Shown: positions 3 to 11,156, counted from the first letter of the stretch. The stretch is 37,414 bases of DNA from Candidatus Bathyarchaeia archaeon (GCA_037481775.1 JBBFKZ010000006.1:42787-80200), one strand, 5' to 3'. Notes: a model not told the origin generated them from the sequence alone. Made by a program: numbers and translations.

Positions 3-449
3 CACGATGCGCCAGACGCGATTGGCAGAGCACTCATCAGCGAGATGCTGGAGCCTACACGCATCTACGTTAAACCCATCCTCCAATTAGCCGAGACAAC
101 ACGAATCAAGGCAGCGGTGCACATAACAGGAGACGCATACTTGAAATTCAACAATCTCGCCCGATTCTCCCCTGGCACAGGCTTCGAATTCCGCAACTTC
201 AAGCCGCAACCAATCTTCAGCTTAATTCAGAAAACCGCCGCAGAACTCGGCTACGCCGTAACGGATGAGGAGATGTTCCGAACCTTCAACATGGGCTGGG
301 GCTTTGCGGTAATCGTGGACAAGCAAGAGACAGAAAACGCGCTGAACACCTTAGAAAAGGCTGGCGCGCAGCCGGAGCAGATTGGAATCGTGACCGACAC
401 GCAGAGAATAGTGATAAAGCACGCCGGTAAGAATTTAGTCTTAGCATAA
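3..449 (+). CDS. purM: Phosphoribosylformylglycinamidine cyclo-ligase (AIR synthetase), 3' part; truncated by the window edge
   Basis: Frame is open from base 3. C-terminal PurM motifs LEPTRIY, HITG, EEMFRTFNMGWG. Directly upstream of purS/L/Q. Confidence 0.93.
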   Translation, partial: HDAPDAIGRALISEMLEPTRIYVKPILQLAETTRIKAAVHITGDAYLKFNNLARFSPGTGFEFRNFKPQPIFSLIQKTAAELGYAVTDEEMFRTFNMGWGFAVIVDKQETENALNTLEKAGAQPEQIGIVTDTQRIVIKHAGKNLVLA

Positions 450-506: not shown

Positions 507-758
507 ATGAAATACCGCGCAAAAATAGAAGTCAGCCTGAAACCAGGTCACAGCGACCCCGAAGGCGAAACCACAGCGCGCCTACTAAAAGAGCTCGGCT
601 ACGCAGTTAGCGCCGTGAACGTGGGCAAGGTTTACACAGTAATTCTCGAGGCTCAAACGCAGAAGGAAGCCGCGGCGAAAGCGGAGGAAATGTGCCGAAA
701 ACTTTTGGCGAATCCAACGAAGGATAATTACACAATAATAATAGAGGAGCAGAAATGA
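507..758 (+). CDS. purS: FGAM synthase subunit PurS
   Basis: 83 aa; LKPG..DPEG, GK.Y, LLANP motifs; stop overlaps the purL start (ATGA). Confidence 0.96.
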   Translation: MKYRAKIEVSLKPGHSDPEGETTARLLKELGYAVSAVNVGKVYTVILEAQTQKEAAAKAEEMCRKLLANPTKDNYTIIIEEQK

Positions 759-3136
759 ACGGAAGCTTCTACATACGCAGAAAAACCGCTTTCCCACTTT
801 ACGAAGTAGCCCTATCCAAAGCCTCTGACAGGCAGCTGTTAGAAATCAGCGGCGAACTGGGCTTATGCTTAAACATAGAAGAGATGAAAGCCATCAGAGA
901 TTACTTTGCGAGCGAGGGCAGAAACCCAACGGACGTGGAGTTGCAAGCCATAGCGCAGACATGGAGCGAACACTGCTATCACAAGACATTCAAAGGCAAA
1001 ATCCGCATAGGCAAAACGGAAATCAACAGCCTCTTTAAAACATACATAGCAAAAGCCACCAAAGCAATCGCCCCCCGCTGGTGCTTCAGCGTCTTCGAAG
1101 ATAACGCAGGCATAATCCGCTTCGACAAAGGCTACGGCATAGCCGCCAAAGTTGAAACACATAATCACCCGTCTGCAGTGGAGCCCTTCGGAGGCGCAGC
1201 CACAGGCGTAGGCGGCGTAATCCGCGACGTCCTCGGCGTATGGGCTGACCCCATTGCATGCACCGACGTTCTGGGCTTCGGCCCGTTAGATTATGATTAC
1301 GCGAAGCTTCCAGCAGGCGTGAAGCATCCAAAGTATGTTTACATGGGTGTTACCGCAGGCATCGGCGCCTACGGAAACAACATGGGCATCCCCACCGTGA
1401 ACGGCGCCATATACTTTGACGAAAGCTACACAGGCAACGTCGTGGTCTACTGTGGATGCGTGGGGATCCTACCGCTTAAAAAGTTCCGAAGAAACGCCCA
1501 GCCAGGCCACATAATAGTGCTTGCAGGCGGAAAAACCGGCCGCGACGGCATCCACGGCGTAACCTTCGCTTCAGCTGAACTGACCGAAAAGTCAGAAGAA
1601 GTCTCTCGTCCAGCCGTGCAAATCGCCGACCCCATCGAGGAGGAGAAACTGAAGCGAGCGGTGATTGAAATCCGAGACCGGGAACTCGCATCGGCGATAA
1701 CGGATTTAGGCGGAGGCGGCTTATCCTCAGCCGTAGGCGAAACCGCAAAAAAATTTGACTGCGGCGCAAAAGTGGCGCTGGACAAAGTTCCCTTAAAGTA
1801 CCTGGGGCTAGCGCCTTGGGAAATCTACCTCTCAGAATCCCAGGAACGAATGCTCTTAACAGTTCCGCCTGAAAAACTCGAAAACGTGCTGGAAGTTTTC
1901 GAAAAAGAAGATGTAGAAGCAACTGCAATAGGGACGCTCACCAAAGAGCAGCGACTACAACTCGCTTATCAAGGCGAACAAGTCGCAGACATGCACATGA
2001 AATTTCTCTTTAAACCGCCTGAAAGCGTAAAAAACGCTATATATCCAACTGTAGAAATTGAGGAACCCACGTTTCCAGAGCCTGCGGACCTCACGGAAAC
2101 TCTTTTAGCGTTACTCGAGGCACCGAACATCGCCAGCAAAGAAAGCGTAGTACGCACCTACGACCATGAAGTAAAAGGGAACACTGTGCTGAAGCCGCTG
2201 CATGGCGAAAACAGCGGACCAAATGATGCCGCGGTGATAAAGCCGCTGGAAAACTCCTGGAAAGGCGCCGTAATATCATGCGGCATGAACCCGAATTACG
2301 GGAAAATTGACGCTTACTGGATGGCCGCATCAGCCATAGACGAAGCCATACGCAACAACGTGGCAGTGGGCGGCCGCAGAATAGCGCTTCTGGACAATTT
2401 CACATGGGGCAATCCGGAGAAGCCTGAGAGGCTGGGCTCCCTTGTTAGAGCATGTCAAGCCTGCTATGACTTCGCCATCGCTTTTCGAACACCCTTCATC
2501 TCAGGCAAAGACAGCCTATACAATGAGTCGCCGCTGGGACCTGTTGCGCCCACTCTCCTAATCACCGCGCTGGGCATAATTTCTGACATTCGGCTGGCAG
2601 TTTCAATGGACTTGAAGAAGCCAGGCGACCTTATCTACATAGTCGGCCGAACCTTCAATGAACTGGGCGGCTCGGAATATTATAAGCTTAAAGGTTACTT
2701 GGGCAGGTCGGTGCCAAAAGTGAGGGCAGGACAGGCAAAACGAACCTTCCGAGCAATAACCAAAGCCATTGACCTAGGCCTCGTTAAAGCCTGCCATGAC
2801 CTTTCAGAAGGCGGCTTGGCGGTGGCAGCGGCGGAAATGGCTTTTGCAGGCAGCTTAGGCTTGAAGCTGGATCTAAGAGTGGCTCCGAGTAAGCAGGTAA
2901 CCCGTAGCGATTTCCTGTTGTTTTCTGAGTCTAACAGCCGTTTTCTTGTGGAAGTTGACGCGCAAGACAAGGCGGATTTTGAAGCATTAATGAAAAATAA
3001 TGCGTGCGCCAGAATAGGCGAAGTAACTGATGACGCAAGATTGACAATTCGCGGTTTACACGGGAAGGTTGTTGTTGATGCCGCAGTTGCCGAGCTATAT
3101 CGCCGTTGGAAGAAAACTTTAAGCAGCGAGGTGTAA
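755..3136 (+). CDS. purL: FGAM synthase subunit PurL (small type)
   Basis: WSEHC, KVETHNHPSAVEPFGGAATGVGG, DLGGGGL, SESQERM, SGKDSLYN, HDLSEGG motifs. Confidence 0.98.
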   Translation: MNGSFYIRRKTAFPLYEVALSKASDRQLLEISGELGLCLNIEEMKAIRDYFASEGRNPTDVELQAIAQTWSEHCYHKTFKGKIRIGKTEINSLFKTYIAKATKAIAPRWCFSVFEDNAGIIRFDKGYGIAAKVETHNHPSAVEPFGGAATGVGGVIRDVLGVWADPIACTDVLGFGPLDYDYAKLPAGVKHPKYVYMGVTAGIGAYGNNMGIPTVNGAIYFDESYTGNVVVYCGCVGILPLKKFRRNAQPGHIIVLAGGKTGRDGIHGVTFASAELTEKSEEVSRPAVQIADPIEEEKLKRAVIEIRDRELASAITDLGGGGLSSAVGETAKKFDCGAKVALDKVPLKYLGLAPWEIYLSESQERMLLTVPPEKLENVLEVFEKEDVEATAIGTLTKEQRLQLAYQGEQVADMHMKFLFKPPESVKNAIYPTVEIEEPTFPEPADLTETLLALLEAPNIASKESVVRTYDHEVKGNTVLKPLHGENSGPNDAAVIKPLENSWKGAVISCGMNPNYGKIDAYWMAASAIDEAIRNNVAVGGRRIALLDNFTWGNPEKPERLGSLVRACQACYDFAIAFRTPFISGKDSLYNESPLGPVAPTLLITALGIISDIRLAVSMDLKKPGDLIYIVGRTFNELGGSEYYKLKGYLGRSVPKVRAGQAKRTFRAITKAIDLGLVKACHDLSEGGLAVAAAEMAFAGSLGLKLDLRVAPSKQVTRSDFLLFSESNSRFLVEVDAQDKADFEALMKNNACARIGEVTDDARLTIRGLHGKVVVDAAVAELYRRWKKTLSSEV

Positions 3137-3141
3137 CAGGC

Positions 3142-3960
3142 GTGAAGCGTGAGGAAATCAAAGTTTGTATTTTACGTGTGGGCGGAACAAACTGCGACGC
3201 CGAAACCCAACGAGCATTCCAAGAGCTAGGCGCAAAGGCGGAAATCTTGCATGTGAACGAGCTTGCCAAACGCAGAAATCTCATGGATTATCAAGCACTT
3301 GTCTTTCCCGGAGGCTTCTCATTCGGCGACTACGTCCGCGCCGGCGCCATACTTGCAAGATGGCTCTCGGCCAAGTTGGGCAAAGAAATCCGCGCATTCG
3401 TTGACGACGGTAGACCAATTCTCGGCATATGCAACGGCTTCCAAGTTCTCGTTGAGTACGGTCTGCTTCCAGGGTTCGACGGTGTAAGCGAATATCCCGA
3501 AGCCGCATTAGCTGCGAACATTCCACAAGGCTACAATTGCCGCTGGGTCTACCTCAAACAAGAAAACAGAGGCAAATGCATTTTTACAAGCAAAATTCCA
3601 ACGGGCAGCGTTCTTAGAATACCTGTGGCGCATTCTGAAGGAAGATTCCTGTTTCCAAAGGAGAAGCAGCAGAAAATGTTTGACAGGCTCATTGACGGGG
3701 ACATGCTGGTTTTCCGCTACTGCAGCAAGAATGGTGAATATGCAGAAGGTAAATATCCAACTAACCCCAATGGTTCTCTCCACGATATTGCGGGTATATG
3801 CAACAAAGAAGGCACCATTTTCGGTTTGATGCCGCATCCTGAAAGGGCGTTTTACTGGTGGCAACAGCCAGACTGGACGCGCCAAGAGAAGATGCCGCAG
3901 TACGGTGATGGGAAATTAATTTTCGAAAGCCTCGTGGACAATCTAACCCGGAAGTTCTAA
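3142..3960 (+). CDS. purQ: FGAM synthase glutaminase subunit PurQ
   Basis: GTNCD, PGGFSFGD, GICNGFQ (nucleophile Cys), NPNGS, MPHPER. GTG at 3142 follows SD-like GAGGTG (the ORF track starts at 3106). Confidence 0.96.
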   Translation: MKREEIKVCILRVGGTNCDAETQRAFQELGAKAEILHVNELAKRRNLMDYQALVFPGGFSFGDYVRAGAILARWLSAKLGKEIRAFVDDGRPILGICNGFQVLVEYGLLPGFDGVSEYPEAALAANIPQGYNCRWVYLKQENRGKCIFTSKIPTGSVLRIPVAHSEGRFLFPKEKQQKMFDRLIDGDMLVFRYCSKNGEYAEGKYPTNPNGSLHDIAGICNKEGTIFGLMPHPERAFYWWQQPDWTRQEKMPQYGDGKLIFESLVDNLTRKF

Positions 3961-4857
3961 ATCCTTAGCGTAGGGTAACCCTGCCCTAGCGCCCATTTTC
4001 ATTATGCATCGTGAAGCAACAAAGTTGCCAAGTGCGCCGCATTCTTGAAGGCTTTTGTCCTTAAGCAATCCGTAGAGGAAGCCGGCGCAGAATGCGTCTC
4101 CCGCTCCCGTGGTGTCTACAACCTTCACGTTAAGCGCCGGTATCAGATGCTTTTCGCGGCCGTCCGTAACGTAGCAGCCGCCGCTTCCAAGTTTGACCGC
4201 CACAATCGTAACGCCCTTTTCAAGCATAAAGTCTGCGCCTTTGCGGTAATCCGCTTCCCCCGTCAGCAGCTTAAGCTCGAGGGCATTGGGCATTAAAACA
4301 TGGGTTCTTCGAATTATGGGTTCCAGAGCTGCGAAGCCTCGTCGGGCATATAATGCGCCTGGATCAAAACTTACCTTGACACGGTCGGGTATTATGTCTA
4401 AGAGTTTCTTCTGAGTTTCAAATGATTTTTCGCCGACGAACGAGGTTAAATGCAGAAAACGCGTTTGCGAAGCATAAGCTACGTTGACATCTTCCAAAGT
4501 TATGGTGTCGTTGACGCCCGAGTTAATATACAATGCGCGCCCGCCTTTTCTATCTACAAAACCAAAGACCGACCCGCTTCTGCCCTGCTCAGCGCGGACG
4601 ATGCCCTCTGTGTTTACGCCTTCCCTGCAGAAGCTTTGGATTAGCAGGTCGCCTTCTCTGTCGCAGCCTACTTTGCCGATGAAGCCAACCCGGCAGCCTA
4701 ACCGTGCAAGGCCAACTGTGGTGTTGGCTGCTGAACCACCGCAGTCCTCTGCGTAGTCCTCAACGAAGCTTTCTTCTTCCTCTCGCGCGATCCTGTTCAC
4801 TTTGAAGAGTTTATCCACATTAAGCGCGCCGAAGCCTACTACATCAAAGCGGCTCAT
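3943..4857 (-). CDS. PfkB/ribokinase-family carbohydrate or nucleoside kinase (EhaT-like)
   Basis: GGSAANT and DTTGAGDAF PfkB signatures. Start overlaps the Ftr-like stop (ATGA). 3' end overlaps purQ by 18 bp. Confidence 0.92.
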
Positions 4858-5762
4858 GAAACCAGCTCTCGCAGGTAAATTTTGTAGTCGCCTAGTTTTC
4901 CGCCATAGTTTCCCGCTGAAACGCGGGCGACGCCGTCAACATTAAGCGCTGCTTGGATTCCTGCTTTCATTGCCCGCTTGACAGCATCCATTGAGACACC
5001 GTTAATTACTATCTCGGGAATGTAACGCACTTCATCGGGCACTAGTGAACGAGGTAATTTCGGTTTAAGTGATGGACAATATGGATGGTTCGTAGTAGGT
5101 CCTATAGCTGGAAAATTGGTTTCTGGCTTTGAGCCAGCGGAACAAACATCAAAAGGAGTGATTACGCCCGCCACTGTGTGTATGGCGTCTAAGGCTTTTC
5201 GGCCCGCCTTCTTCACGGCTTCTTTTGTCCTGCACATAACCCAAAAGTTTGCGCCCATAACGCCGCGAGCATAGCCAAGCCGGCGTTCGATGACGAAGTC
5301 TGGAACCATAAGCGGCACAATGATGACTTCGCGGTCATGTCGCTTTTCAGTCCATTCGTAGCCGTCACCGCAGTGTCCAACATGCTCCATCATGTCCAGT
5401 TTTCCCTCTGCATCTGGCAATGCGTCATAAACTGCAGTGAAAGGCTTAACCAGAATGTCCTGCCGTATTCTGTAGGACAACTCGGTTTCAAACTTCTTCA
5501 ACGATGCAGAGAAGGATGTACGTGAGTTTATTGCACCCCAGAACTGCAGCAGCGCGCCTGCGCGGCCGTCAGGCGTCTCTTTCTCGCTTAGCCATTTTTC
5601 AACTCCGCCCTCTACTCTGCCAATCACCACGGCCGGTGTTGCGGTTGCGTCCTCGGCTGCGCTGCGAACCGTACGCTTATCGTCAGCTGTAATGATTATG
5701 CGGCAAAAAATCCCGGCGAAAGCTTCCGCATAAGTGTCCTCGATAACAGGTTTGCCAGTCAT
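4854..5762 (-). CDS. Formylmethanofuran:H4MPT formyltransferase paralog (Ftr-like, EhaS type)
   Basis: [34 protein letters not shown] and [10 protein letters not shown] Ftr motifs, but with non-canonical [13 protein letters not shown] and [11 protein letters not shown] segments. Confidence 0.9.
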
Positions 5763-6844
5763 TATCCGAGCCTCCCTATGCTTTCGCCTCGCACTTTCCT
5801 TCTAAACTCGCTGCTTTCTTTGGCTATGATGTCCATATTTTCCGCTGTTACTATTTGAACTTTGGGCAAAGCGGAAGGATACAATTCGAGGAGCTTGCTG
5901 CACAGATGCTGGCTAACCGTGCTTTTCTGCAGCGTTTTAAGGCTCCAGCTTTCCAGCACTTTCAGTGTTTGCTGTTTCCCAAGGTTAAAGAATAGGTCAG
6001 CGATTACGGCGGTTACGATGCTGCTTTGAGATAGCACTGCGACTTCAGCGTTTTTCACCGCGTACTCGTTGCCGTTGAATGAAACAGTTAAGCCGTCGCT
6101 GCTTCTAACAAGTTTGAAGGCTTCCACGTCAGTTATGCTGTCGCCCACGTACATCACATCGCTTAACTGCGCGCCTACGCGTTCCACAGCATCTTGTATG
6201 GCTTCAGCCTTTTGCTTGCCGCCCACAGTGGTTACTTCTATGAAGATTCGGCCTAACCTCGTGCCTGCAATTTCGCTCCAGAAAATCTTGTCAAGCCGCC
6301 TAATTGTTTCCTGATCCACAGGCGAAAAGTCTTCTATTGCCTTTGCAGCCGGCGGAATATTAATCATCGGCATCTGCGCAATTTCTTTCGCGACATCTTT
6401 CAGCCAAGCCTTTTCCCCTTCGCTGACGTCATACTTGCTGAGGCGCAGTTTAGTGCAGTAAGTGTTTGCGTACGGAAAATTTGTGGCTCTGCAAAGCGCC
6501 TTGATGTAATGCTCATAGCTTGTGCTGACAATAAAAGCGCTGGCTACTGCTTGCACATGTTGCAGTGTTTCTCTGCTGTTTGCAATTAGAATCAGATTTT
6601 GAGCGGAAAATTCCTCTATCTGCTCATCTGTGAGGTCATATGCTTTTAGGAAGGGCAGAATCAGCTTTAGCGTGTTTCCAGCGGAGTAGCCAGGCCGTTT
6701 AAAAGCGTCGGCAAGCACGTCGTCGTACTTGCTTATGAGCGCGAAAAGCTTATCACCGTTTGGGATAAAATGCGCCGTTATTTCATAAGCGTTGTCATTC
6801 TTGCTTATGGGGCCCTCGCAGTCTGATATGAAAACGGGCTTCAC
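5762..6844 (-). CDS. HAD-superfamily hydrolase, COG4030/EhaR-like
   Basis: HAD motif I SDCEGP, motif II VSTS, motif III Lys (GGKQK), motif IV GDSITD, plus [11 protein letters not shown] start overlaps the purD stop (GTGA). Confidence 0.85.
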
Positions 6845-8265
6845 AGGTTACGCCTCAACTGCTCCATGTGGCTTATGCTCTGTGCTATGTGCTGCCTCGC
6901 CGCGATGTCAGTTCTGTTCCAGAGCGCTCCGCCGCTTATCGCCCGCGTGCCCTCCAATGAAATTTGACGTGCTTCCTCGATGCTTGCGCCGATGCCTAAA
7001 ACGCCTACTGCCCGGGATTTCAGCGCGTAGGTTTCGCCGTCTCTAACCTCCATGGAGCCTGGGTAAACTCTGATTCGATCACCGTATTTTTCTGCAAGCG
7101 CATAAGCCCTTGACAAGTCAACTGGCGTGTCCACCTTAGTCTTATTCACACGCTCCGGGAAGGCGTCCGCGTAGCCGCCGTATGTGGGTGGAACCTTGTA
7201 AGTTAACACGGCGGCTGCCTTCTCCAATTCCACACGCTTGAGGTTTCCTTCTAAAATTCTGAAGCAGACTTCAACGAAATCATCCTTTAAAAGTGGAAGA
7301 ATGTTAATGATTTCGGGGTCGCCTGGGCGGCTGTTGTTTTCGAGAACCTTTATACCCTTTCCAGTGTGCATAAAAGCCAAATACAATGGCACGCCTCTCA
7401 AGGCGGTGTTATCGTTTATTTTCGCCGCCCATCTCTCAAAAATTTTCTCGGCAAGCTCAAGTTCGCATTCCCGTTCAGCCGCCGTTAGGAAAGGCAATTT
7501 GTCATCCGCGTCTTTGTAGGCGCCCATGCCGCCGGTGTTTGGACCCTTGTCGCCGTCAAATGCACGCTTGTAATCACGCGTATCCGGTAACGGAACCAGA
7601 TGCTTGCCGTCGCAGAACGCTTGAAAGCTGGATTCTTCTCCATCTACTTTCTCTTCGATTATAACCGCGCCATGTTGGAAGTTTGAAAGGAAATGCTCAA
7701 AGAGCTGCTCGCGCGTTGTGAAGTGGTCACCCCAAACGCCTACACCTTTGCCTGCTGCAGGCTTGTCTGGCTTCACCACCGCTTGGTTCTCAAGCTCATC
7801 AAGCCACTCGTAAACGTCCTTCTTTACAGCGGATAGCCCATCATAATCCTTCGGGTCAAAGATTTTGAAGCGCGGATTTGCTTCCGGCGCTATTTCCTGC
7901 AGCAACAAGCGCTGCTGAACTTTGCTGGCTTCTATGGCGTAGTCCCGTGTTGGGCAGATAACTGGGATGCCAGTTCGCTGCTCTACAAGGTTGCGTACGC
8001 CCTCAATTATGGGTTTTTCAGGGCCAACCAGCACAAAGTCGATTTTATCCCGGTTAGCCTCGGCAAACCTGCAAATTTCCTCGATGTTCAAGTCGGGTAT
8101 AACAACATGCTTTGCGGCTCTTTTCATATTGAATGGGTTGCGCTGTTTGTCTGCAATGTAGAGCTCCACTTTGTGGTTTGGGCTTCGGCTAAAAGCGTCA
8201 ATCATCGCGGCTTCTCTTGCACCGTATGACACGACGAGTACGCCTACTTTCTCCATTCGCGACAC
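6841..8265 (-). CDS. purD: Phosphoribosylamine-glycine ligase (GAR synthetase)
   Basis: GAREAA, VGPEKP, EASK, VVKPD..AAGKGV, DYKRAFDGDKGPNTGGMG, SRPGDPE. Start is GTG 8265 or ATG 8256. Confidence 0.95.
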   Translation of the reverse strand: MSRMEKVGVLVVSYGAREAAMIDAFSRSPNHKVELYIADKQRNPFNMKRAAKHVVIPDLNIEEICRFAEANRDKIDFVLVGPEKPIIEGVRNLVEQRTGIPVICPTRDYAIEASKVQQRLLLQEIAPEANPRFKIFDPKDYDGLSAVKKDVYEWLDELENQAVVKPDKPAAGKGVGVWGDHFTTREQLFEHFLSNFQHGAVIIEEKVDGEESSFQAFCDGKHLVPLPDTRDYKRAFDGDKGPNTGGMGAYKDADDKLPFLTAAERECELELAEKIFERWAAKINDNTALRGVPLYLAFMHTGKGIKVLENNSRPGDPEIINILPLLKDDFVEVCFRILEGNLKRVELEKAAAVLTYKVPPTYGGYADAFPERVNKTKVDTPVDLSRAYALAEKYGDRIRVYPGSMEVRDGETYALKSRAVGVLGIGASIEEARQISLEGTRAISGGALWNRTDIAARQHIAQSISHMEQLRRNL

Positions 8266-8291
8266 CTTTGTTAGAGAATAAACGGAAACAC

Positions 8292-9854
8292 TTAATTTGT
8301 TTTATCACTATGCGCACTTGAAATCTCGCAGGTTTCGTAGAGCCTTCCCTTTTCCTCATAGCCCTTGAGAAATTTTCCTTTCATTTCGTCAGCTAACTTC
8401 TGTGCATAAGGCGTCGGGTATTCACCTGTAACGCAGGCTAAACATAGCTCTCCGCGGCTGTGCCCTGTGGCGCGCACTAATCCTTCGATGGATTGATAGC
8501 ACACGGCGTCTGCGCCTATTATCTTAGCGATTTCTTCGGGCTTATGCTTTGAACCTATCAGTTGCCCGTAAGTTGCCATGTCAATTCCGTAGAAGCAGGG
8601 GCCGATTATGCGGGGAAACGTCACGAACATGTAAACCTTGCTGGCGCCTGCCCGCCGCAGTTTTTCTATAATGATTTTTGTGGTGTCGCCGCGTACTATG
8701 CTGTCCTCTGTTACTATAACTCGTTTACCTTTAACTTTGGAGCCAAGGATGTTTACTTTGCGGTCGATTGTTGAGAAACGCTCATTATTCAATAGTATGA
8801 AGGCTCTTTCAGTTACGTAACGGTGCCTACGTGAGGCGCGCTCCCATCTAAGCCCGGAAGCCTCGTGGACCCCCATCGCAGAGTCATCGCCTGTCTCAGG
8901 CACGGAGAGAATGACATCCGCGTCTTTAACAATTTCCGGGTATTCCCTAACGAGATTTCTTCCAAAATCTTCGCGTATTTCGTAAACGTATTTACCATCA
9001 AACCTTGAGTCAGGCCTTGCGAAGTAGGCGTATTCAAAAGCGCAGAATGCCTTACGAGGATTCTTAATAAGCTGTATACGCTCAAAACCATCCTTTGAAG
9101 CCTTCACGAGTTCACCTGGCGCAAGCTCAAAATCTCGGATAAACCCGTTCATGTCCAAGCTTACGGTTTCAGAGGAAAACGCGTAGGTTGCACCGTCTGG
9201 GCTGTGCCCGGCGCAAAGCGGCTTTATGCCATGCGGATCTTTGAATGCGAAGAGTTCACCTTCCGCAGTTATGCCTGCTACGGAGAATGCGCCGTCAAGG
9301 CTGTGCATGCATGCAGCGACAGCTTCTGCTAGGTTTCCACTCTTGTCAAGTTCTAGCAGTAACTTTTGGCAAACTATGTCTGAATCGCAATTATATGAGA
9401 AACCTGGAAAGCTTTGCTCCAACTCCTTTCTTAACAGCATGGCATTAGCGATGTTGCCGTTAAATGAAATCGCAAGTTTCAGCTTATTCAGCGACGCAGT
9501 AACAGGCTGAGTGCCCTGAATAATCGACGTTTCATCGCTTTTTCCCGAAGTCGTATAGCGCACGTTACCTAATCCCGCGTGCCCCGGTAGACGCTTGAGC
9601 CATTCTTGTATGTTGCTGGTGAGTAATTTGGGCACTAAGCCAAGTCTCTTGTGCAGGTAAACCCTGCCATTGTCGTATGTGAGAAATCCATGGGACTGGT
9701 GTCCTCGATGGTTTTGGGCGCGTAGTCCCCAATAAATATATGGAAATATCGCTTCGTCTCTGAAGTTTATTGCAGCGAATACACCGCAGCCTATTTCAGG
9801 TCCCTTCTTGTTGCGGAGAATAAAGAAGAATGGGGGTTTATCAGCTTTTAGCAC
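8292..9854 (-). CDS. purF: Amidophosphoribosyltransferase (Fe-S type)
   Basis: Ntn Cys (CGVF), HRG, VRY.TSG, CAFEYAYFARPDS, EDSIVRGDT PRPP loop, PCFYGID, CLAC. The start codon is uncertain. Confidence 0.93.
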   Translation of the reverse strand: MLKADKPPFFFILRNKKGPEIGCGVFAAINFRDEAIFPYIYWGLRAQNHRGHQSHGFLTYDNGRVYLHKRLGLVPKLLTSNIQEWLKRLPGHAGLGNVRYTTSGKSDETSIIQGTQPVTASLNKLKLAISFNGNIANAMLLRKELEQSFPGFSYNCDSDIVCQKLLLELDKSGNLAEAVAACMHSLDGAFSVAGITAEGELFAFKDPHGIKPLCAGHSPDGATYAFSSETVSLDMNGFIRDFELAPGELVKASKDGFERIQLIKNPRKAFCAFEYAYFARPDSRFDGKYVYEIREDFGRNLVREYPEIVKDADVILSVPETGDDSAMGVHEASGLRWERASRRHRYVTERAFILLNNERFSTIDRKVNILGSKVKGKRVIVTEDSIVRGDTTKIIIEKLRRAGASKVYMFVTFPRIIGPCFYGIDMATYGQLIGSKHKPEEIAKIIGADAVCYQSIEGLVRATGHSRGELCLACVTGEYPTPYAQKLADEMKGKFLKGYEEKGRLYETCEISSAHSDKTN

Positions 9855-9989: not shown

Positions 9990-11156
9990 CTATGGCCTTA
10001 GTGCTTTCCGCAGTTCTTCTGCCTTGTCTGTGTATTCCCATGTGAAGTCAGGGTCATCTCTTCCGAAATGACCGAAGACAGCGGTTTTCCGGTATATCGG
10101 CCGGAGCAAGCGCAAGTGCTCTATAATCGCTTTAGGTCGCATGTCAAAGTGCTTCTTCACCAGCTTCAGAATCTCGTCGTCAGGCAGTTTTCCAGTGTCG
10201 AACGTGTTCACGAACACGGATACGGGTTGTGCTAGGCCGATGGCGTAGGCTATTTGCACCTCGCATTCGTCTGCTAGGCCTGAGGCAACTATGTTCTTGG
10301 CAATGTATCTGGACATGTAACTGCCTGATCTGTCCACTTTTGACGGGTCTTTGCCTGAGAAGCATCCGCCGCCGTGGCTTCCGAAGCCGCCGTAGGTGTC
10401 CACGATTATTTTCCGTCCAGTCAAGCCTGAATCCGCTAGGGTTCCACCGATCACGAATCGTCCTGTGCCGTTAACGATGTATTTTGTTTCTGAAGTTAAC
10501 ATTTCTGGTGGAATAATGGCCTTGACCACGTGGTTAACTACATCTTCTCTTACTTTTGCCTCGTCAACTTCCTCGGTGTGCTGTGCAGCGATGACTACGG
10601 TGTGCACTCTTACGGGTTTTCCATCACAATATTCCACTGTAACCTGCGATTTGCAGTCTGGCCGCAGATAAGGCAGGATTTTCTGTTTTCTGCAGTCTGA
10701 CAGCCTTTTGACTAGCTTGTGCGCAAGCATTATCGGCATGGGCATCAGCTCCTTTGTCTCGTTAGTGGCGTAGCCGAACATCATTCCCTGGTCTCCAGCG
10801 CCCTGCTCATGTGTCTCGGTTTCGTTAACGCCCATTGCGATGTCCGGCGACTGCTCCTCTAGGGAAACTAGGATGCCGCAGGTTTCCCAGTCCAGCCCGT
10901 CTTTGGCGTTGTCGAATCCGATTTCGCGGAGTGTGTTTCTGACGATTCTGGGTATTGACACGTAGCAGGATGTTGTGACCTGGCCGGTAACTATAACGTT
11001 CCCTTGCATCACCAGTGTTTCGCAGTCAACCCTTGCTTTGGGGTCTTTTGCTATGATTGCGTCCAGAACACTATCAGAAATTTGGTCGGCAACTTTGTCG
11101 GGGTGCCCCTCGCCCACTGATTCTGAAGTAAACAAGTATTTCCCTTTTCGTCTCAT
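9990..11156 (-). CDS. metK: S-adenosylmethionine synthetase, bacterial/eukaryotic type
   Basis: [56 protein letters not shown]. Confidence 0.97.

Follow-up and report, generated by a model that had tools for sequence, protein, structure and literature searches.

Gene content of the locus

The window, by which we mean the whole analysed stretch of 37,414 nucleotides, comes from a Bathyarchaeia metagenome-assembled genome of 1.82 Mb in 54 contigs that is 96.7% complete. It contains a minus-strand series of genes in the order purF, purD, HAD-like gene, Ftr2 and PfkB, which is convergent with a plus-strand series purM-purS-purL-purQ, so that the 3' ends of purQ and of the PfkB gene overlap by 18 nt. 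The features are as follows.

3–449, plus strand: 3' end of purM (step 5), profile match
507–758, plus strand: purS (step 4), profile match
755–3136, plus strand: purL (step 4), profile match
3106–3960, plus strand: purQ (step 4), profile match
3943–4857, minus strand: PfkB-family kinase, ribokinase-like, 304 aa; PF00294, 179.4 bits
4854–5762, minus strand: Ftr2, 302 aa, paralog of formylmethanofuran:H4MPT formyltransferase; PF01913 and PF02741
5762–6844, minus strand: HAD-like protein, EhaR/AF1437 family, 360 aa; weak HAD matches and homology to 1Y8A
6841–8265, minus strand: purD (GAR synthetase, step 2), divergent type; TIGR00877, 263 bits (cut-off 288)
8292–9854, minus strand: purF (amidophosphoribosyltransferase, step 1); TIGR01134, 327 bits (cut-off 350)
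9990–11156, minus strand: metK, a neighbour outside the proposed system; TIGR01034, 571 bits

An earlier note on this DNA had assigned these reading frames and families and had described three start/stop overlaps among them. The profile scores, coordinates and strands agree with its assignments, and all three overlaps can be read directly from the sequence (GTGA at 6844–6841 between purD and the HAD-like gene, TAATG at 5764–5760 between the latter and Ftr2, and ATGA at 4857–4854 between Ftr2 and the PfkB gene). The catalytic Cys of purF lies in a CGV motif and is residue 23 of the longest open reading frame. The metK gene occupies the same position in four related loci (L010, L012, L013 and L020).

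The same note had stated that PurN and PurT, the two known enzymes for step 3, were missing. Profile searches found neither gene in the window, and across the whole source genome there were no matches to PF00551, the PurN profile, while the best match to TIGR01142, the PurT profile, reached 56 bits where the cut-off is 502 and sits in an open frame of 1093 aa, which is too long for PurT. The genome search likewise returned no PurH and no FTHFS, and located two tandem PurP-like genes. The note had also called for a search for a separate canonical ftr, and one such copy (Ftr1, canonical clade) was found on contig C1. Because Ftr1 is accompanied in the genome by Mch and by FwdA/C-like genes, formyl-H4MPT and formyl-methanofuran should both be available.

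Ftr2 is a distinct paralog of Ftr

Both Ftr domains of Ftr2 are recognised well above threshold (PF01913, 152.8 bits, cut-off 27; PF02741, 195.6 bits, cut-off 25). The protein exceeds the cut-off of NF002554 (353 bits against 297) and falls under that of TIGR03119 (239.8 bits against 292.6). It aligns over its full length with the solved Ftr structures (E 5e-55) and belongs to the same two-domain fold family as Ftr (PDB 1FTR/2FHJ, 1M5H and 1M5S), with the catalytic Glu kept: the Glu of the motif PEIVING (E250), which both clades conserve, pairs with that of EIVING in 1M5S and 1M5H. In FhcD an oxyanion-stabilising role is described for Glu252 (Hemmann 2019, PMC6926001).

Phylogenetic analysis places Ftr2 in a clade distinct from that of the source genome's Ftr1 (SH-aLRT 99–100), with the signature residues W75, C131, I147, E214, I220-G221-P222 and P249, and full-length alignments with Ftr1-type genes give 37–42% identity. 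The separate clade, the TIGR03119 score below cut-off and the genome's own canonical copy set Ftr2 apart from the clade of characterised Ftr and FhcD proteins. Unlike Ftr, Ftr2 is a second copy encoded in a purine operon, and it is excluded by PurN and PurT as described below. No fusions of Ftr2 with PurD, HAD or PfkB were found; the three long proteins recovered were all Ftr–FwdC combinations.

The HAD-like protein and the PfkB kinase

Profile searches with the HAD-like protein gave only weak HAD matches. Direct comparison was more informative, with matches to A. fulgidus AF1437 (PDB 1Y8A, E 2e-29), to a Methanopyrus sp. protein (P0454, 34% identity, E 3e-54) and, over the full length, to a protein carrying the JGI name 'energy-converting hydrogenase A subunit R' or EhaR (P0424, 28% identity, E 2e-35), so that by sequence the protein, called COG4030-like in the earlier note, belongs to the EhaR/AF1437 family. 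The motifs DxEGP, STSY, GG..K, GDSITD and FNGN.YA are conserved in 88 homologs, and AF1437, a structural-genomics protein, shares DxEGP, VGDSIxD and FNGNEYA. HAD phosphatases are characterised by an Asp nucleophile in DxD, a Ser/Thr, a Lys and an acidic pair. In the 88 homologs D8 is invariant and the residue at position +2 is Glu (DxEGP), with STSY, K212 and GDSITD conserved, and D8, STSY, K212 and GDSITD may, in our reading, correspond to HAD motifs I–IV. The protein probably acts in the cassette as an accessory phosphatase or phosphotransferase.

The translated kinase contains the PfkB motifs GG and DTTGAGD, and GG/DTxGAGD is invariant in 24 orthologs. Its best NCBIfam match is the ribokinase family TIGR02152, at 176.6 bits where 299.65 is required, and for this reason it was rejected as a ribokinase equivalog. 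Among 75 related loci, 67 have this gene directly 3' of Ftr2. It is likely that the HAD-like protein and PfkB are accessories of the formylation step which travel with the formyltransferase.

Ftr2, PurN and PurT exclude one another in Bathyarchaeia

A fixed sample of 151 Bathyarchaeia genomes (designated by G numbers) was searched, and all exclusion counts refer to this group; Methanobacteriales, Archaeoglobi and ANME-1 enter here from published reports. Ftr2 was found in 57 genomes, PF00551 in 59 and PurT-like genes in 11. These three almost never coincide: the pairwise co-occurrences number one, zero and zero, the single double carrier (G144) combining Ftr2 with a PurN-like gene whose score is below cut-off. 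The earlier note's expectation that PurN or PurT would not routinely accompany the triad thus holds in this sample. A naive Fisher test of exclusion gives p = 3e-20, a value inflated by the relatedness of the genomes; the exclusion is largely structured by family and so represents few independent events. One family (f16) is mixed, with PurT in seven genomes, the Ftr2 cassette in two, PurN in one and none of them in one. Five families without PurD (10 genomes) contain none of Ftr2, PF00551 or PurT-like genes. Conversely, five genomes with a lone Ftr2 all have PurD (325–438 bits) and all lack PF00551 and PurT matches. The HAD-like gene was found in no sampled genome with canonical PurN or with PurT.

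The slot after purD and exchange within the cassette

The arrangement purF-purD-HAD-Ftr2-PfkB recurs in most of 80 related loci examined. Of 71 Bathyarchaeia loci with sufficient flanking sequence, 63 have purD upstream of Ftr2, as do 17 of 42 metagenome loci, so that the linkage to pur genes, which might have been peculiar to the source genome, is not confined to it. Depending on the genome, the slot directly after purD holds purN, purT or HAD-Ftr2-PfkB. In 17 genomes a PF00551 match is no more than 410 nt away from purD, and in four PurT is no more than 255 nt away from it; occupants that were spot-checked scored above their cut-offs (PurT, 482 bits, cut-off 339; PurN, 218 and 153 bits, cut-off 150).

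Five genomes have a divergent PurN-like gene in place of Ftr2 and keep the HAD and PfkB genes, among them G048 and G054, where the order is purD, PurN-like, HAD, PfkB. The G048 PurN-like protein retains the catalytic motifs N-x-H-P and D-E-G-P, and the cassette PurN-like enzyme shows no match to the N-terminal part of PurN. Since HAD and PfkB persist beside a PurN-like gene, they are not tied to H4MPT chemistry. The earlier note had regarded the entire cassette as H4MPT-dependent; exclusion and linkage favour a step-3 role for Ftr2, with formyl-H4MPT or formyl-methanofuran as the possible donor, and the five exchange genomes speak against H4MPT dependence of HAD and PfkB.

On three contigs (L104, L137 and L140) purD-HAD-Ftr2 is 53–61% identical to the window, whereas purF, purL, purQ, purS and purM are only 33–41% identical, and comparison of the sequences indicates that the module moves as a unit. 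Ftr2 also occurs alone, without pur, HAD or PfkB neighbours, at 51 of 79 metagenome loci; at 13 of these the flanking sequence exceeds 2.5 kb on either side, and the genes examined around nine of them are not conserved.

A candidate enzyme for purine step 3

The earlier note had mentioned a PurN/PurT gap in archaea, and the literature describes it: Brown 2011 (PMC3261824) found neither purN nor purT in M. kandleri, in two Archaeoglobi and in four Methanobacteriales. For M. kandleri the missing step-3 enzyme is noted again in a 2023 review (PMC10025317). ANME-1 are described as being without PurN and PurT, and a divergent Ftr2 is described in Archaeoglobales, M. kandleri, M. marburgensis and ANME-1 (Chadwick 2022, PMC9012536). 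According to the same source Ftr2 is also found in ANME-2a and ANME-2b, which keep folate enzymes including PurN, and co-occurrence therefore exists outside Bathyarchaeia.

Because Ftr2 occupies the gene slot of the missing enzyme in a genome devoid of both known ones, it probably fills the step-3 gap. We favour, as the most probable reading, that Ftr2, with formyl-H4MPT or formyl-methanofuran as donor, acts as a third GAR formyltransferase that is not homologous to the other two. The operon purF-purD-HAD-Ftr2-PfkB would then encode purine steps 1 to 3. Ftr2 would be a duplicated formylmethanofuran:H4MPT formyltransferase that has retained pterin-dependent formyl-transfer chemistry, and would pass a formyl group from N5-formyl-H4MPT (or from formyl-methanofuran) to GAR or a close derivative, whose primary amine would replace that of methanofuran as acceptor. 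The analysis demonstrates gene content, family membership, the lack of PurN and PurT, phyletic exclusion and positional replacement; the acceptor, the donor and the occurrence of the reaction itself we infer. The support for GAR formylation by Ftr2 is comparative, namely phyletic exclusion, shared gene position and exchange within the cassette. A literature search found no earlier proposal connecting Ftr2 or the triad with purine step 3.

Ftr2 would thus be a third solution for this step. With PurN, which uses formyl-folate, it would share the product FGAR and, in Bathyarchaeia, the position after purD, but its fold is unrelated and its C1 carrier different. PurT performs the same step without folate and takes the same slot in four genomes; unlike Ftr2, it is an ATP-grasp enzyme using free formate and ATP. 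With formyl-H4MPT as donor, formylation of a primary amine is uphill by only +4.4 kJ/mol (Hemmann 2019, PMC6926001), and this low cost together with the retained oxyanion-stabilising Glu makes the chemistry plausible. Brown 2011 (PMC3261824) states that formyl-H4MPT is not believed to be the formyl donor for step 3, a statement that concerns the N10 form, and cites labelling in which purine C8 derives from acetate C2 in M. stadtmanae and not in M. smithii. The acetate labelling is consistent with a formyl donor bound to H4MPT.

That no GAR formyltransferase is recognised in Archaeoglobi, Methanobacteriales and Methanopyrus has been acknowledged as a gap since Brown 2011, for some 15 years, and Ftr2 is a concrete, testable candidate to fill it. 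If the proposal is true, purine C8 is drawn directly from the H4MPT/methanofuran C1 pool, the Ftr fold has a second physiological acceptor, and the gap can be filled in models of metabolism for methanogens, ANME-1, Bathyarchaeia and some Asgard archaea.

Roles of the accessory proteins

The triad resembles EhaR-EhaS-EhaT, which are the last genes of the Methanothermobacter eha operon, are co-transcribed with the hydrogenase and have been read as hydrogenase subunits (Kaster 2011). The families and their order are the same (HAD-like, Ftr-like, ribokinase-like), the likeness to EhaS and EhaT resting on the family descriptions in Kaster 2011 and that to EhaR on JGI 'EhaR' names, an Atlas cluster name and sequence matches. 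Unlike EhaR-S-T, the triad of the window follows purD rather than a hydrogenase operon, and with pur genes as neighbours both here and in most related loci, we rejected, on gene position, the reading of its products as Eha hydrogenase subunits at this locus.

A further idea, possible but doubtful in our view, is that the three genes encode an ATP-driven shunt around step 3, which EhaR-S-T would also encode in Methanobacteriales. The EhaR-type HAD protein would strip the 5'-phosphate from GAR, Ftr2 or a PurN-like enzyme would formylate the resulting glycinamide riboside, and PfkB would re-phosphorylate only the formylated riboside, so that a near-equilibrium formyl transfer would become irreversible for one ATP, the same price as PurT. 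In Methanobacteriales the genes of such a shunt would share a transcript with the hydrogenase by which the formyl-methanofuran pool is refilled. Among known systems, the Fhc complex of methylotrophs resembles the cassette in that the slightly uphill transfer by its Ftr-family enzyme FhcD is pulled by an exergonic partner, FhcA (Hemmann 2019). That partner is a formate-releasing amidohydrolase, whereas Ftr2 would be partnered by a kinase and a phosphatase-like protein. If the purine role of the triad is true, EhaR, EhaS and EhaT are wrongly classed as hydrogenase subunits, and 'EhaR' labels of the JGI kind mislead. Methanothermobacter is genetically tractable.

Alternative explanations

Compared with GAR formylation by Ftr2, it seems unlikely that some other enzyme carries out step 3 while the triad serves in synthesis or recycling of H4MPT or methanofuran, or in nucleoside or nucleotide salvage beside a redundant Ftr. 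Such a role would suit the many Ftr2-clade genes that lie far from pur genes, the position of the Methanothermobacter triad, which follows a hydrogenase operon and not pur genes (Kaster 2011), and the sugars and nucleosides on which PfkB and HAD families commonly act. It leaves unexplained the mutual exclusion of Ftr2, PurN and PurT, the location of the triad in the slot used for purN or purT by its relatives, the replacement of Ftr2 by a PurN-like gene inside the cassette, and the absence of the HAD gene from sampled genomes with canonical PurN or PurT.

We regard as improbable the suggestion that Ftr2 formylates a different amine of the pathway, such as glycine, and that the divergent PurD ligates N-formylglycine to phosphoribosylamine, giving FGAR without free GAR. 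Its attraction is the PurD score (TIGR00877), which is below cut-off at 220–272 bits in most Ftr2 genomes as compared with 300–505 in those with PurN or PurT. This difference may simply track lineage, however, and HAD-Ftr2-PfkB stands beside a high-scoring PurD of 397 bits in G051, and the five genomes with a lone Ftr2 have PurD at 325–438 bits.

Least probable of all is formylation of GAR by a PurP paralog (ATP-grasp, formate and ATP) with formate or other support from the triad, for although the source genome has its tandem PurP-like pair and Brown 2011 (PMC3261824) lists cluster II PurP proteins as having no shown function, formate would be needed most in PurT genomes, where the triad is absent, Methanobacteriales lack PurN/PurT and are reported with one PurP (Brown 2011), the tandem pair also occurs in four PurT genomes (G036, G086, G119 and G025) and a PurN genome (G079), and at least 10 Ftr2 genomes, for example G031, G033 and G051, have a single PurP match.

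The operon and its genomic setting

The Ftr-like gene (Ftr2) lies in a run of five minus-strand genes of the window, supported by open reading frames and profile matches, with the other pur genes on the opposite strand.

Genes of the operon and its surroundings in the window
8292-9854, minus strand, purF
6841-8265, minus strand, purD
5762-6844, minus strand, HAD-like gene (EhaR/AF1437 family)
4854-5762, minus strand, Ftr-like gene (Ftr2)
3943-4857, minus strand, PfkB kinase
opposite strand, purM (3' end), purS, purL and purQ

The three gene junctions, read directly from the sequence, are GTGA, TAATG and ATGA, which together with the reading frames and profile matches bears out the earlier description of a five-gene operon with overlapping starts and stops. 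The window PurF retains its catalytic Cys, the PfkB kinase its catalytic motifs, and the HAD-like protein a putative Asp nucleophile and, on our own assignment of its residues, what appear to be the remaining HAD motifs. Beside the operon, at 9990-11156 on the minus strand, is a metK-type S-adenosylmethionine synthetase of the bacterial/eukaryotic type (TIGR01034, 571 bits), and a MetK gene occupies the same position in four other fetched loci (L010, L012, L013 and L020); archaea usually carry a different MAT family.

The Bathyarchaeia genome assembly has a size of 1.82 Mb, consists of 54 contigs and reaches 96.7% completeness. A whole-genome search found no Formyl_trans_N domain and no PurT, since the best match to the PurT profile reaches 56 bits (cut-off 502) and is situated in a 1093-aa open frame that is too long for PurT. 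Step 3 is therefore without a known enzyme here, and the hole in the pathway is real. PurH and formate-THF ligase were likewise not found in the genome search. Mch is encoded, FwdA-like and FwdC-like genes adjoin mch, and a second Ftr copy lies on contig C1, so that the organism has an H4MPT/methanofuran route; both the lack of PurN and PurT and the presence of a separate canonical Ftr are thus confirmed at the level of the whole genome. Two tandem PurP genes were also found, and purine C2 is therefore supplied by the formate- and ATP-dependent route.

These two PurP-like genes (G000, C24:3160-4799, loci L007 and L008) raise the possibility of a PurP paralog as the general answer to step 3. 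This was rejected because many genomes of the class have tandem PurP pairs, whether or not they encode PurT, and such pairs also occur with PurN, because at least 10 Ftr2 genomes have a single PurP match, and on the strength of passages in Brown 2011 (PMC3261824).

Ftr2 as a separate paralog

In a tree of 56 full-length family representatives, the window Ftr2 falls in a 16-member clade separated from a 40-member clade containing the genome's own Ftr1 with SH-aLRT support of 99. The split persists when 79 metagenome sequences are added, with 91 rows on one side, the Ftr1 outgroup on the other and a support of 100. Identity to the window protein is 61% or more for Ftr2 orthologs of the same order and 37-42% for Ftr1 copies. 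Judged by tree and identities, Ftr2 is a distinct Ftr paralog. Solved Ftr structures align with it end to end (E 5e-55), and in this alignment the Glu of the 'EIVING' motif is retained; residues specific to the Ftr2 clade are W75, C131, I147, E214, I220-G221-P222 and P249. No fusion of Ftr2 with PurD, the HAD-like protein or PfkB was found among longer proteins, a weak negative, and each of the three long proteins that did turn up pairs Ftr with FwdC.

Distribution in Bathyarchaeia

The class-level family searches used one fixed sample of 151 Bathyarchaeia genomes at least 80% complete. Ftr2 (E <= 1e-75) is present in 57 of these, PF00551, the PurN-type domain, in 59, a PurT-like gene (225-303 bits) in 11 and PurD in 124. 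Ftr2 and PF00551 coincide in one genome only, G144, where the PF00551 match is PurN-like and below cut-off, and PurT co-occurs with Ftr2 or PF00551 in none of the 151. Routine occurrence of PurN or PurT alongside the HAD-Ftr2-PfkB triad, named in the earlier note as an outcome that would tell against its proposal, is thus not what the class shows, with a single overlap in 151 genomes. The p value of a naive Fisher test is 3e-20; given the kinship of the genomes and a pattern that for the most part follows families, the independent events behind this value are few. One family, f16, is mixed, with seven genomes carrying PurT, two the Ftr2 cassette, one PurN and one none. All three are missing from 25 of the 151 genomes, ten of which make up the whole of families f15, f19, f21, f24 and f31 and also lack PurD. 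The PurT of G119 is genuine (NF006766, 482 bits against a cut-off of 339), as are the PurN proteins of G106 and G079 (218 and 153 bits against 150), and the remaining PF00551 matches checked, that of G144 included, are PurN-like and under the cut-off at 51-108 bits. PurD falls into two score classes in this sample. Most Ftr2 genomes, families f13 and f20, and some genomes of f26 and f23 have a PurD that stays under the TIGR00877 cut-off (220-281 bits), and PurN and PurT genomes have one of 300-505 bits; one genome, G097, has a PurD of each class.

The three enzymes also share a position. A purN or PurN-like gene follows purD immediately, within 410 nt, in 17 genomes of the sample, purT does so within 255 nt in four, and in Ftr2 genomes the same slot is occupied by HAD-Ftr2-PfkB. 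For 80 Bathyarchaeia loci, each taken with 10 kb of sequence on either side and counted only where there was enough room, PfkB lies downstream of Ftr2 in 67/75, and upstream are HAD in 64/74, purD in 63/71 and purF in 62/70. The pur linkage is accordingly not unique to this genome, the second outcome that had been named as refuting. Four loci (L016, L019, L079 and L087) escaped the count only through a few-base overlap of adjacent matches; the true exceptions are L041, L049, L053, L054 and L061, where Ftr2 stands alone, and L035, L039 and L081 have neither HAD nor purD upstream. At locus L165 the Ftr2-HAD-PfkB triad stands by itself, away from any pur genes. In the contig lineage of L104, L137 and L140, purD-HAD-Ftr2 is 53-61% identical to the window and the flanking pur genes only 33-41%, which suggests that the putative module passes between lineages as a unit.

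Some cassettes are interrupted by unrelated genes, namely a GH43-like ORF, two paired nucleotidyltransferase genes and an AAA_14/DUF4143 gene, which were discounted. In L018 (8991-9968) and L029 (8988-9962) a 325-aa ORF with a GH43-like match of 24-28 bits, below cut-off, lies between the HAD gene and Ftr2; L034 and L045 have the same gap of about 1 kb, which in L045 holds just two short ORFs. L059 (9941-16890) contains two purF-purD-HAD-Ftr2-PfkB copies in inverted orientation with fragmented matches, probably through misassembly in a long-read bin.

Genomes with Ftr2 alone

Five genomes carry Ftr2 alone. All five have PurD (325-438 bits) and none has PF00551 or PurT. Their only HAD paralog (27-34% identical) and their PfkB (42-46% identical) are encoded elsewhere, and in three of the five a 50-residue piece of the HAD gene, with 62-78% identity to residues 309-360, persists just upstream of Ftr2.

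Remnants of the HAD-gene 3' end in stand-alone Ftr2 genomes
G421, C1:2417721-2417870
G425, C1:394921-395076
G423, C22:5349-5456

As the HAD-like protein is reduced in these genomes to a remnant or a distant paralog, Ftr2 may suffice for its predicted function without it. The position of the G421 remnant, directly before the stand-alone Ftr2, looks like the result of a deletion of the other operon genes. No conserved partner gene was seen around nine annotated stand-alone Ftr2 loci.

A PurN-like gene in place of Ftr2

The HAD-like gene is present in 57/57 Ftr2 genomes, in two where a contig end truncates Ftr2 (G017 and G164), and in five without Ftr2, three from family f13 (G022, G030 and G054) and two from family f26 (G048 and G138). 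In each of these five a divergent PurN-like gene encoding 299-330 aa directly follows purD, and in G048 and G054 the order is tightly packed as purD, PurN-like gene, HAD, PfkB.

PurN-like genes
G048, C17:16341-17333 (L091:2341-3333)
G022, L090:2423-3322

Against TIGR00639, which has a cut-off of 150, the G048 and G022 proteins reach 51-73 bits; the genes of G030, G054 and G138 are partial PF00551 matches. The G048 protein retains the PurN catalytic motifs, and its first 140 residues have no match in solved PurN structures. Each of the five genomes has one canonical-type Ftr elsewhere, and PurP was not found in them. By gene order and profile matches, then, a formyltransferase of one fold is replaced by one of another fold within a single cassette, and this swap is the strongest single argument for the candidate Ftr2 as the step-3 formyltransferase. 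Because they are kept with the PurN-like gene, HAD and PfkB are likely to be part of step 3 rather than of H4MPT chemistry. The cassette as a step-3 candidate has survived all computational tests applied, including the two outcomes named beforehand as refuting. Ftr2 would represent the third family of enzymes to catalyse GAR formylation, itself a known reaction, after the formyl-folate-dependent PurN and the formate- and ATP-dependent PurT, and as a candidate it makes a long-standing gap at step 3 directly testable.

Proposed mechanism

Ftr-type formyl transfer passes via an oxyanion held by a protonated Glu, and transfer from formyl-H4MPT to the furan-coenzyme amine costs +4.4 kJ/mol, according to passages in Hemmann 2019 (PMC6926001). 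The aminomethyl group of GAR, the proposed acceptor for Ftr2, is a nucleophile similar to this amine, and the pull on the transfer could come from the downstream ATP-dependent PurL. Purine C8 derives from acetate C2 in M. stadtmanae and not in M. smithii, as quoted in a passage of Brown 2011 (PMC3261824), labelling that is consistent with a donor in the H4MPT pool. The HAD-like protein, formyltransferase and PfkB could form a cycle of dephosphorylation, formylation and re-phosphorylation, a coherent proposal that we consider unlikely.

Relatives beyond Bathyarchaeia

In 301 Thermoproteota genomes no HAD-like protein was found outside Bathyarchaeia; all 40 carriers are Bathyarchaeia, so that the phylum-wide search adds no new lineage. 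For Methanobacteriales, Archaeoglobi, Methanopyri and ANME-1 the evidence consists of papers, protein names and one PDB entry. According to a passage of Brown 2011 (PMC3261824), purN and purT are missing in Archaeoglobi, Methanobacteriales and M. kandleri, in agreement with the earlier note that some H4MPT-using archaea have no recognisable PurN or PurT. This list largely coincides with the Ftr2 list of Chadwick 2022 (PMC9012536), with the exception of ANME-2a and ANME-2b, which retain PurN. Among the matches listed in a literature search of openly accessible main texts, none linked an Ftr paralog or EhaS to GAR formylation, and no paper paired 'glycinamide ribonucleotide' with 'formylmethanofuran'.

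Methanothermobacter EhaS and EhaT are annotated as Ftr and ribokinase and co-transcribed with ehaA-R, as stated in a section of Kaster 2011 (PMC3087415); by published annotation they resemble the window Ftr2 and PfkB. Their co-transcription with Eha would also be logical, as Eha replenishes the pool of formyl-methanofuran (PMC3585446). Homologs of the downstream eha genes occur in unrelated systems, and the linkage of these genes to the operon is not a tight one (passage in the PIRSF paper, PMC2674652). The Ftr-like eha gene is called EhaS in one passage of Kaster 2011 and EhaT in another, and in Table 2 of that paper the Ftr of M. thermautotrophicus is MTH403, a gene that falls within the eha range 384-404.

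The window HAD-like protein matches PDB 1Y8A (A. fulgidus AF1437, an entry without assigned function), a Methanopyrus protein (E 3e-54) and a JGI 'EhaR' (E 2e-35); the protein atlas gave the same EhaR lead, and its nearest PfkB clusters belong to Methanobacteriota. Proteins related to the L165 HAD-like protein bear the JGI name 'energy-converting hydrogenase A subunit R' and, by NCBI name, include proteins of Methanopyrus, Altiarchaeota, Asgard lineages, Thermoplasmata, Hydrothermarchaeales, Halobacteriota and a few bacteria. Bacterial relatives of the family by NCBI name include Dehalococcoidia and Ammonifex. The JGI name is carried by many metagenome proteins of the HAD family (P0382, P0393-P0395, P0424 and others) and looks like an over-extension from operon position.
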